Shown: positions 5,009 to 52,792, counted from the first letter of the stretch. The stretch: DNA of 64,000 nucleotides from Escherichia coli (GCF_003334815.1 NZ_QOWO01000006.1), one strand, 5' to 3'. Program-made: numbers and translations. Notes: a model not told the origin generated them from the sequence alone.

Positions 5009-5090
5009 TGGCCTGATAAGACGCGTGAGCGTCGCATCAGGCATCGTTCACCATTGCCGGATGCGGCGTTAACGCCTTATCCGGCCTACG
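5009..5090. repeat. BIME: two REP elements in inverted orientation between the convergent genes ypfH and ypfN
   Basis: GCCTGATAAGACGCGTGAGCGTCGCATCAGGC and GCCGGATGCGGCGTTAACGCCTTATCCGGCCTAC. Confidence 0.85.
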
Positions 5091-6463: not shown

Positions 6464-6838
<375 letters not shown>

Positions 6839-29744: not shown

Positions 29745-29930
<186 letters not shown>

Positions 29931-40646: not shown

Positions 40647-41630
<984 letters not shown>

Positions 41631-41652
41631 GCGTTTCTGATTCATTGATTAA

Positions 41653-41684
41653 AGGCCAGGCAGTAACATTACTGACTGGCCTCA
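41653..41684. other. Hairpin copy 1 (left flank of the yfeX-yfeW BIME)
   Basis: GGCCAGGCAGTAACATTACTGACTGGCC; a near-identical copy lies at 41838..41868. Confidence 0.7.
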
Positions 41685-41712
41685 GATTGTTGACCAAGTG
41701 CGCGTTGTACAC

Positions 41713-41810
41713 GCCGGATGCGGCGTGAACGCCTTATCCGGCCTACGAAATCGTGCTAATTCAATATATTGTGGGCTCCACGTAGGCCTGATAAGCGTAG
41801 CGCATCAGGC
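41713..41810. repeat. BIME (two inverted REPs) between the convergent genes yfeX and yfeW
   Basis: GCCGGATGCGGCGTGAACGCCTTATCCGGCCTAC ... GTAGGCCTGATAAGCGTAGCGCATCAGGC. Confidence 0.88.
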
Positions 41811-41837
41811 AGTTTTGCGTTTGTCAGCACTCTCAGA

Positions 41838-41872
41838 CCAGCCAGTAACATTACTGACTGGCCTTTTTATTA
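41838..41872 (+). terminator. Hairpin copy 2 with T-tract, overlapping the yfeW stop codon
   Basis: CCAGCCAGTAACATTACTGACTGGCC followed by TTTTTATTA. Confidence 0.6.
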
Positions 41873-43174
41873 CTTCTGCTTTAACGCCGCATACACCTGA
41901 TCAACTACCCAACCATAAGTTGCAATCGGCAACTGACCGCTTTCGAACATATTGGGATTCTTTTGCGGATCGGCAACCGGCGAATGTGGCTTGTTGCTTA
42001 ACATCACAATCGTCATATGATTCACCGGATCGATAACGGTCACCGTTCCGGTCCAGCCAGTGTGACCGTAGGTTTGCGGGCTTGCCAGCGTGCCAAACGT
42101 CGGCGTCATGGTGGCATTACCATTCACGCGCCAGCCGAGGCCAAAAGTGGCATCTTCCTTAGAGCTGGTGGTGAACATCTTCACCGTTTCCGCATTGAAC
42201 AGCTGCACATCACCATAGCCCCCGCCGTTCAGCATCGTTTGCATTAACACCGCAATATCGCCGGTATTGGAAAACAAACCTGCGTGCCCGGAAACGCCGC
42301 CCATCGAATAAAAGGCTTTTTCATCGTGCACCTGACCCCAGAGAGTGGAGGTGCGGATATTCGGGAAATGGATCACGCCATCGCGGGTATTGCCGTTCAA
42401 TTCCGTGGCGGCAATTTGTTGCGGTTTAAAGCCTTTCAGCAGCGGGTTAAATACCGTATGTGTCAGGCCGAGCGGGCGATAAATCGACTCTTCAACATAG
42501 CGGTCAAGCGGCTGACCGGTAACCGACTCGACGATAAATCCAAGCAGCATATAATCGACATCGCTGTAGATATGTTTGCTGCCGGGCTGATATTCCAGCG
42601 GCGTGCGCTTGATCATCTCCAGCGTCTGGCCTTTATCCTGGGAATATAACGCGCCCGCGACCGCTTTATTCGGGTATTGCGGATCTGCCGGGAAACCGCC
42701 GCTGTGATGCAGCAGGTCAGAAATCCGCAGGGTGTTTTTGCCTTTAATGGTGTCATTTGGACTATCGGCAAACCCCGGAATATATTTCGCAATCCGATCG
42801 TCAGGATGCAGTTTGCCTTCGCTCATCAGCTTTTGCAGGGCGAAGTTCGTGGCGTACATTTTGGTGTTTGAGGCCAGGTCATACAGCGTCCCGGTGGTGG
42901 CTTTGACAGGCTGTTCCATCAACACGCTGCCATCGTACTTTTTCGCCGCTCCCCAGGCTTTGCGATACACAATCTGATTATCTTTAATGATCAGCAGGTT
43001 TACGCTGGGATAACCGACATCAACTTGCTGGCTAATCCAGCGATCCATCTGGTTAAGCCGTTCGACGTTAAACCCTGCTTTCTCTGGCGAGCTTTCTGTC
43101 AGAACAGGGTATTTTGCGGCGCTGACGCTACAACTAACAGCCAGCAGAGAAAGATAGAGCATTGTCCGTTTCAT
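41870..43174 (-). CDS. yfeW: Penicillin-binding protein 4B (class C beta-lactamase fold)
   Basis: ORF track 41870..43261; start trimmed to MKRTMLYLSLLAVSCSVSA... (434 aa); SNTK active-site motif. Confidence 0.9.
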   Translation of the reverse strand: MKRTMLYLSLLAVSCSVSAAKYPVLTESSPEKAGFNVERLNQMDRWISQQVDVGYPSVNLLIIKDNQIVYRKAWGAAKKYDGSVLMEQPVKATTGTLYDLASNTKMYATNFALQKLMSEGKLHPDDRIAKYIPGFADSPNDTIKGKNTLRISDLLHHSGGFPADPQYPNKAVAGALYSQDKGQTLEMIKRTPLEYQPGSKHIYSDVDYMLLGFIVESVTGQPLDRYVEESIYRPLGLTHTVFNPLLKGFKPQQIAATELNGNTRDGVIHFPNIRTSTLWGQVHDEKAFYSMGGVSGHAGLFSNTGDIAVLMQTMLNGGGYGDVQLFNAETVKMFTTSSKEDATFGLGWRVNGNATMTPTFGTLASPQTYGHTGWTGTVTVIDPVNHMTIVMLSNKPHSPVADPQKNPNMFESGQLPIATYGWVVDQVYAALKQK

Positions 43175-52604: not shown

Positions 52605-52643
52605 GGATTAATAGCATCGGAGACTGATGACAAACGCAAAACT

Positions 52644-52741
<98 letters not shown>

Positions 52742-52792
52742 ATAAACAAAGCGCACTTTTTTAACAGTTGTTGCTGCCGACAAATGCAGTAT

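Follow-up and report, generated by a model that had tools for sequence, protein, structure and literature searches.

A duplicated terminator hairpin flanks a BIME-1 element between yfeX and pbp4b of Escherichia coli and has counterparts at other BIME-1 sites

Why does the same hairpin stand on both sides of a BIME in the short spacer between yfeX and pbp4b (yfeW)? The window, by which we mean the whole 64,000-nucleotide stretch of E. coli DNA that was analyzed, is 100% identical to E. coli K-12 MG1655. In it, yfeX, encoding porphyrinogen peroxidase (plus strand, 40731-41630, with the stop codon ending at 41630; RefSeq MG1655 2549646-2550545, 100% identity to K-12), converges on pbp4b/yfeW, encoding penicillin-binding protein 4B (minus strand, 41870-43174, stop codon 41870-41872; RefSeq MG1655 2548102-2549406), across a spacer of 239 bp. 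The initial annotation had described a near-palindrome duplicated around a two-REP BIME in this spacer, with a T-tract behind the distal copy only and that copy overlapping the yfeW stop, and had named a large difference between the copies as evidence against kinship. The duplication is real. The repeat finder delimited a direct repeat of 30 nt, 41653-41682 (AGGCCAGGCAGTAACATTACTGACTGGCCT, hereafter copy 1) and 41835-41864 (AGACCAGCCAGTAACATTACTGACTGGCCT, copy 2), with starts 182 nt apart and 28 of 30 positions identical, so that the two are clearly related. The 21-mer CAGTAACATTACTGACTGGCC, at 41661-41681 and 41843-41863, has no third place in the 64 kb, and the number expected from shuffled sequences is 0. 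The T-tract was also confirmed, on the plus strand at 41864-41868 and after copy 2 only; the overlap with the stop codon was not, as copy 2 ends 5 nt short of it.

Both hairpin copies are 28-nt stem-loops. Because the hairpin unit is palindromic, the copies can also pair with one another, and the entire spacer folds into one long stem: 41651-41866 is a long near-perfect palindrome in which 47-nt arms, including the arms of the element between the copies, are 81% complementary, and the single-stem fold has z-scores of -5.6 and -7.4. The relative orientation of the copies was read from their asymmetric positions. Aligned directly they matched at 28/30 positions and aligned as inverted copies at 27/32, and the loop sequence CA, which is asymmetric, runs the same way in each; the loop and a stem mismatch together identify the copies as direct, not inverted. 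As plus-strand RNA, copy 1 folds with -18.6 kcal/mol and copy 2 with -11.3 kcal/mol, and as minus-strand RNA the values are -19.7 and -20.8 kcal/mol. Copy 1, which had been taken for the weaker hairpin, is therefore the stronger one on the plus strand; what it lacks is a U-tract in the yfeX direction. Two substitutions set copy 2 apart from copy 1, G to A at 41837, which is private to K-12, and C at 41842, which is common to other lineages. On the yfeX strand they produce A.C and C.A mismatches that weaken the hairpin, while on the pbp4b strand they become G.U pairs within a perfect 13-bp stem; this strand asymmetry may reflect selection on the pbp4b transcript. A simple terminator scan of 41300-42200 called no terminator. 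We think that the rules of the scan do not tolerate an internal stem mismatch, since folding gives strong hairpins.

Between the copies, and flush with both of them, lies a complete dispersed element of 152 nt (41683-41834). Among genomes without a BIME at this locus its best paralogue is the one in the fepA-entD spacer, with ~90% identity over all 152 nt. Homology to the paralogues starts at CAGATTG and stops at ...CTC, exactly at the inner edges of the hairpin copies. Read along the plus strand, the element comprises a left arm opening with CAGATTGTTGACCAAG (41683-41712), conserved on the left side of many BIME-1 sites; a Y-type REP, or palindromic unit, ending in CTAC (41713-41746, placed by alignment to paralogues); an L linker (41747-41781); a Z1-type REP beginning with GTAG and paired with Y in inverted orientation (41782-41810); and a right arm ending in GCGTTTGTCAGCACTCTC (41811-41834), inverted with respect to the left one. 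One Y and one Z1 unit in inverted arrangement, aligning with the paralogues in fepA-entD and at 52620-52771 of the window, mark the element as a BIME-1. The arms provide terminal inverted repeats: as read from the alignments, CAGATTGTTGACAAA matches the reverse complement of the right-arm sequence GAGACTGATGACAAA at 12 of 15 positions. The linker has a putative IHF-type core, AATTCAATATATTG (41758-41771), which is present in the K-12 unit and conserved in the aligned paralogues, and which was itself included in the exact-match probe used to find the other sites described below. IHF is stated to bind the L linker of BIME-1, and the five parts together correspond to the RIP/RIB architecture (PMC3333891). 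This copy has been annotated as REP176 (window 41712-41809; supplement of bioRxiv 10.64898/2026.03.23.713779), with bounds near the start of Y and the end of Z1. Rfam returned sub-threshold, REP-derived matches only (naRNA4 and ES036), and the MG1655 RefSeq record lists no repeat features for this stretch. A second full-length BIME-1 is found in the window at 52620-52771 on the minus strand, between convergent ORFs, with neither a flanking hairpin nor a duplication.

In the initial annotation, arrival of the REP cluster was suggested to have duplicated a terminator hairpin, in the manner of a target-site duplication. If so, genomes that lack the BIME should carry one hairpin, and BIME-free genomes with two hairpins would speak against it. 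We surveyed 5,426 complete E. coli genomes with two probes, one for the single hairpin and one for the hairpin-to-BIME junction. The hairpin was present in 5,426/5,426 genomes at 6,837 places, that is, in 5,427 records plus 1,410 extra matches, and the junction was found in 1,410 genomes, once in each. Since 6,837 is the sum of 5,427 and 1,410, two hairpins occur only where the BIME is present, and the hairpin is specific to this locus; that it might be a dispersed repeat was thereby ruled out across the 5,426 genomes. In the remaining E. coli (~4,000 genomes) the BIME is absent and exactly one hairpin copy is followed by the T-tract, and none of the 5,426 genomes has two hairpins without a BIME. 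One of the 6,837 matches falls on a record classed as a plasmid, and may represent plasmid-borne chromosomal DNA or an artefact of assembly.

Alleles without the BIME fall short of the filled ones by exactly 182 bp. Their sequence is AAAGGCCAGGCAGTAACATTACTGACTGGCCTTTTTATTAC, an A-tract followed by the stem-loop and the T-tract, running AAAGGCC...GGCCTTTTT. One strand folds with -20.8 kcal/mol and continues with UUUUUAUUAC; the other folds with -20.7 kcal/mol and continues with UUUAAUCAAU. A U-tract on either strand, behind stems of this stability, is as expected of a bidirectional intrinsic terminator. In K-12 the two tracts are divided between the copies. Copy 1 has the A-tract (41651-41653), which reads UUUAAU past the hairpin on the minus strand and so provides pbp4b RNA with its U-tract. 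Copy 2 has the T-tract, the U-tract for yfeX RNA, in a context, GGCCTTTTTATTAC, that is identical in the single-copy alleles.

Loci in relatives were found via YfeX. Two Citrobacter species (Citrobacter sp. R56 and Awk4) also have exactly one homologous hairpin each, a perfect palindrome with a T-tract, and no BIME, which indicates that the hairpin predates the element. Within Escherichia, E. whittamii has hairpin-BIME-hairpin, with one unit. Of two cryptic-clade genomes, Escherichia sp. E1V33 has three hairpins and two BIMEs, and MOD1-EC7003 has eight hairpins and seven BIMEs, for which Tandem Repeats Finder reports a period of 182, 7.2 copies and 96% matches. The number of 182-bp units, each a hairpin with a BIME, thus ranges from 0 (most E. 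coli) through 1 (K-12, E. whittamii) to 2 and 7, head to tail, in the cryptic clades, and the unit behaves as a VNTR among related genomes. A BIME-1 is described as single and never tandem; this holds for the 1,410 E. coli genomes and fails for E1V33 (2) and MOD1-EC7003 (7.2). In the arrays, the first hairpin retains the A-tract and the last retains the T-tract, abutting the pbp4b stop, and the internal hairpins are set between ...CTC and TCAGATTG. E. albertii has hairpin-BIME and then a deletion that took the second hairpin and ~650 nt of pbp4b. This deletion begins exactly at the right end of the BIME and leaves pbp4b truncated. Just past the yfeX stop, Citrobacter amalonaticus has a tandem REP array whose unit includes AATGTTTGTTCCTGTCAC(T/C)CCACC, a stretch beginning at that stop codon; here too, flanking host DNA has been amplified along with REPs.

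The BIMEs at the yfeX locus (K-12, R32, E. whittamii, E1V33, MOD1-EC7003 and E. albertii) cluster together by common diagnostic characters. They differ from the K-12 unit by 4-11 mismatches, as against 14-22 for dispersed paralogues, and their divergence is about that of the flanks. The simplest reading of these alignments, with polarity assigned by parsimony, would be one ancient insertion at this locus in the ancestor of the genus Escherichia; the presence of an orthologous BIME in other Escherichia lineages is what makes the insertion old. By the same token, orthologues in E. albertii, E. whittamii and two cryptic clades mean that the empty-site comparison within E. coli is not decisive by itself. 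K-12 (1 unit) and EC93 (0 units) differ at 0/300 positions of the flank on the yfeX side and 3/300 on the pbp4b side, and most of the 'empty' E. coli alleles are probably recent precise deletions between the 30-nt copies, not the pre-insertion state. In E. coli MLI108K3 and R32_14_1F, the yfeX-pbp4b alleles are only 92-95% identical to K-12 and their left and right flanks are mosaic, which suggests recombination with, or introgression from, other Escherichia lineages.

The strongest support for duplication on arrival came from other sites. Public metagenome contigs were scanned for the BIME-1 linker pattern (with AATTCAATATATTG in the probe), which gave 120 loci, and BLAST with three BIME-1 units yielded 108 full elements with usable flanks, falling into 26 clusters (~25 distinct sites). 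This sample stems from one exact-match probe and may favor young, well-conserved copies. At 11 of the ~25 sites (10 of ~24 besides yfeX), the element is flanked on both sides by flush direct copies of a hairpin that is specific to the site: the left copy reaches the first base of the element, and the right copy begins past the last. The duplicated hairpins measure 16-30 nt (16-27 nt outside yfeX; p<=0.01 each against shuffles), and direct alignment beat inverted alignment at 10 of the 11 sites, with 1 tie. Sequence before the left copies is A-rich (3.5 of 8 positions) and that after the right copies T-rich (3.9 of 8), with opposite-polarity controls at 1.6 and 2.2, and convergent ORFs flank at least 8 of the 11 sites. 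Another ~10 sites have the hairpin at the right end only, half of them with a truncated left arm, and 4 have no hairpin, including fepA-entD and window 52620-52771. The footprint is accordingly common among BIME-1 sites, not universal, and the duplication is either not obligatory or often erased.

Single-hairpin alleles extended the empty-site evidence beyond yfeX, and the flush direct repeats occur singly in unoccupied alleles at yfeX, tsx-yajD and metE-ysgA alike. In the tsx-yajD spacer, again a convergent pair, AR_0013 has a single hairpin with a T-tract and EC42405 has hairpin-BIME-1-hairpin. K-12 has a decayed version, in which a 41-nt deletion truncated the right arm and took the second hairpin with it; this shows, for tsx-yajD only, that one-sided sites can be products of decay. 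At metE-ysgA, the sampled E. coli alleles carry one hairpin, GAGAAAAGACCGGGTGGTATTACCACCCGGTTTGG, and a related contig has hairpin-BIME-1-hairpin; no E. coli genome covered at least 80% of a query with this filled allele. K-12 has the full two-copy arrangement at katE-chbG, where the sampled alleles include no clear single-hairpin version. At site20, whose flanks are not from E. coli, the duplication is perfect (23/23). E. coli O121 RM8352 has a different BIME-1 beside metE, with a hairpin, ATGGCTTCCGGTGATGGAAGCCAT, abutting its left end only and with ysgA replaced by other genes.

We consider it about 75% probable that the hairpin copies in the yfeX-pbp4b spacer are a target duplication of the terminator common to the two genes, made by insertion of the BIME-1. 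The idea put forward in the initial annotation is supported in this form, and chiefly by the 10 other BIME-1 sites. Four other explanations were weighed against it. The element might have inserted beside the hairpin without duplicating it, the second copy arising later by quasi-palindrome correction, in which template switching across the BIME stem copies the flank and extends the palindrome. The near-perfect palindrome of 41651-41866 and its one-stem fold (z-scores above) would suit such a process, and the ~10 sites with a hairpin at one end offer a possible starting state; its product, however, would be an inverted copy, and the direct alignment prevails at yfeX as it does at 10 of the 11 sites. 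Inverted duplication by palindrome extension was ruled out by this comparison, and we regard the explanation as very improbable. We attach no more weight to the proposal that two tandem hairpins existed beforehand, that the BIME landed between them, and that all single-copy alleles are deletions. Direct repeats of 30 nt readily give rise to deletions, and this is probably how most of the single-copy alleles in E. coli arose. Against the proposal stand the count of 0/5,426 E. coli genomes with two hairpins and no BIME, the single hairpin of Citrobacter, and metE-ysgA, with a single hairpin in all E. coli sampled and hairpin-BIME-hairpin in a relative. It would further need the same coincidence at 10 further sites with unrelated hairpins.

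The remaining two explanations concern what moved and when. Hairpin and BIME could form a composite 182-bp mobile unit that moves or amplifies whole, perhaps by RAYT rolling-circle activity at GGCC|T, so that K-12 would hold a 1.16-copy array. The arrays of 2 and 7 units with a period of 182 are as this would have it, and the GGCC|T boundaries match both the C|T preference and the amplification model of PMC3333891. Yet the yfeX hairpin is found nowhere else in the 5,426 E. coli genomes, and other BIME-1 sites have different hairpins, from which it follows that the hairpin derives from the target. A composite unit would also explain growth from one to several units, but not the first duplication, and we consider it unlikely. 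Alternatively, K-12 and other Escherichia might have gained the BIME recently and independently at a hairpin hotspot, the single-copy alleles of E. coli being truly ancestral. The near identity of the K-12 and EC93 flanks does indicate a recent change, and a hairpin-directed mechanism would permit recurrent insertions. The diagnostic characters of the BIMEs at the yfeX locus are, however, absent from every E. coli paralogue found elsewhere (best ~90%), so that the donor would have to exist at the yfeX locus only; this makes recent gains distinctly improbable.

Under target duplication, then, the ancestral spacer would have contained one bidirectional intrinsic terminator, consisting of an A-tract, a 28-nt GC-rich stem-loop and a T-tract. 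A 152-nt BIME-1 would have integrated at the foot of this hairpin in the ancestor of Escherichia, leaving a full hairpin copy on either side, each of which would keep one tract. Breaks or strand joins placed symmetrically at the two hairpin feet, on the two strands, followed by fill-in, could produce this geometry. A duplication of 30 nt at yfeX and 16-27 nt elsewhere, tracking the size of the target hairpin, is not of fixed length and points away from a cut at fixed distance. The geometry of the copies, their locus specificity, the variation in copy number, the orthology across species and the recurrence at other sites are direct observations; from them we infer that duplication and insertion coincided, that the breaks were staggered, and which way the locus changed within E. 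coli. Once in place, the 30-nt direct repeats within a ~215-nt near-palindrome would drive unequal recombination or slippage, with precise loss of 182 bp in most E. coli or tandem gain to 2 and 7 units in the cryptic clades. Such changes need only the direct repeats, and the rolling-circle model of PMC3333891 would also fit a 182-nt unit bounded by GGCC|T.

The obvious candidate enzyme would be RAYT (TnpA_REP), which cleaves C|T near REP hairpins, over hundreds of nucleotides, and for which the amplification model was proposed (PMC3333891). At yfeX, a reading of the element as T...A puts GGCC|T at the junction on either strand. Those at tsx-yajD (CATT|T) and site20 (CGTT|G) depart from C|T. 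Staggered RAYT cuts at C|T were accordingly rejected as a general mechanism, and with junction dinucleotides so inconsistent among sites, the involvement of RAYT is unsupported. More generally, we propose, with somewhat less than even confidence in its being both correct and not previously described, that BIME-1 elements (REP doublets equivalent to REPINs) may integrate in a structure-directed manner, opening both strands at the feet of terminator hairpins and duplicating the whole 16-30 nt hairpin.

What such an insertion does to transcription can be read in part from published 3' ends. An in vivo list of 306 bidirectional terminators is reproduced in supplement file 2 of bioRxiv 10.64898/2026.03.23.713779. 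As given there, an overlap region of convergent 3' ends, entered for murP:yfeW:yfeX:murQ:yfeY in log and stationary phase, spans MG1655 2549591-2549628, which is window 41648-41685 and so copy 1; its pbp4b-side edge maps to ~41648, by the A-tract. On the evidence of that entry, yfeX RNA would end ~3 nt beyond copy 1, by termination or processing, despite the lack of a U-tract there, and pbp4b RNA would cross copy 2 and the BIME, placing both in its 3' UTR, and end after copy 1. Of the earlier suggestion that the yfeX transcript either ends at a weaker first copy or reads through to the second, the entry favors the first copy, though not as the weaker hairpin. Read-through could be stopped by an in vitro, NusG-dependent Rho-binding region at 41852-41966 on the yfeX strand, antisense to the 3' end of pbp4b (M_N10_2680, MG1655 2549310-2549424 minus strand; supplement file 2 of the same preprint). 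The SMRT-Cappable-seq supplement contained nothing for this locus. Insertion of the BIME would re-wire the termination of two convergent genes without destroying it, and it is plausibly tolerated because each A- or T-tract keeps a hairpin.

In several respects the locus resembles known systems. With described BIME-1 elements (RIP/RIB) it shares the inverted Y and Z1 units, the long L linker with a putative IHF-type site, the extragenic position at convergent 3' ends and, going by the summary accounts in PMC3333891 and in PMC1187871 (the latter summarizing Bachellier 1997), presence/absence polymorphism among strains. Those elements are described as single copies without target duplication, whereas here a 30-nt duplicated host hairpin flanks the element, and two Escherichia lineages have tandem arrays of 2 and 7 units in which the spacer is a complete host terminator. 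The arrays recall BIME-2 and atypical BIMEs in being head to tail, variable in copy number among strains and homogeneous within the locus (96%), but those consist of Y and Z2 units with short S linkers and s/l/r motifs, in place of Y, Z1 and an L linker, and what separates the units here is a terminator hairpin specific to the locus. As a bidirectional intrinsic terminator, the single-copy allele is a textbook example; the K-12 version differs from the usual kind in being split, each tract having its own hairpin copy and 152 nt of BIME lying between.

Among mobile elements, the Correia/CREE repeats of Neisseria and the ERIC/IRU repeats of enterobacteria are similar MITEs. They are palindromes of ~100-150 nt that have an IHF-type site between terminal inverted repeats, are transcribed as part of 3' UTRs and have target sequence repeated directly on either side. 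Correia/CREE and ERIC/IRU duplicate the fixed dinucleotide TA; the duplication described here is 16-30 nt, varies between sites and comprises the whole target stem-loop. Hairpin-centered recognition and the GGCC|T junctions at yfeX are reminiscent of 'peel and paste' transposition by IS200/IS605 elements and of RAYT. Enzymes of the IS200/IS605 type make no target duplication and insert 3' of a short specific sequence (PMC3333891), in contrast to the long duplications that flank the element at 11 sites, and C|T, as noted above, does not fit the junctions at two of the sites.

REP and BIME sequences are the most abundant repeats of E. coli, and a recurrent footprint constrains how they insert. 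The K-12 BIME itself, and polymorphism of BIME-1 for presence or absence, were already known (PMC1187871). The insertion mechanism has been given as unknown (PMC8266576, 2021; bioRxiv 10.64898/2026.03.23.713779, 2026), the 2026 preprint speaking of 'semi-random insertion' by a mechanism 'not fully established', and according to a review, REPs 'do not display MITE signatures' (PMC3184786). Duplication of the hairpin is not described in the REP/RAYT/REPIN literature that we covered (PMC3333891, PMC2817692, PMC3116915, PMC3733652, PMC8266576 and the 2021 and 2024 Bertels preprints); the primary literature of the 1990s lies outside this scope and may hold an earlier description. If our reading is correct, it would provide the first footprint of REP/BIME insertion at the sequence level and would contradict a pure IS200/IS605-like mode without duplication, since a direct, flush duplication of hairpin length is incompatible with simple single-strand 'peel and paste'. 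It would also explain why BIME-1 elements are located at the 3' ends of convergent genes, and would supply a built-in route to precise excision, seen as presence/absence polymorphism, and to occasional tandem growth. Finally, it would define a target, the intrinsic terminator hairpin, which, carried on a plasmid, can serve to trap new insertions.

Several further alleles were encountered at the locus. In E. coli PEC1021 (L006, about 488-1195), a copy of IS200C directly follows GGCCTTTTT of the single-copy terminator, between the T-tract and the pbp4b stop, so that a second hairpin-seeking element is found at the same terminator. BL21-type strains (Nico21(DE3)) and JJ1887 have lost pbp4b and retain the single hairpin, with murP next. 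In E. coli SCPM-O-B-8794, yfeX and murP have a degenerate BIME-1-like element directly between them, and both pbp4b and the hairpin copies are absent, an allele type not met in the other genomes examined. Elsewhere in the window, further REP clusters are located at 349-382, 5056-5089 and 29794-29927, the last being a tandem pair with a period of ~100 nt that resembles a BIME-2-type array.
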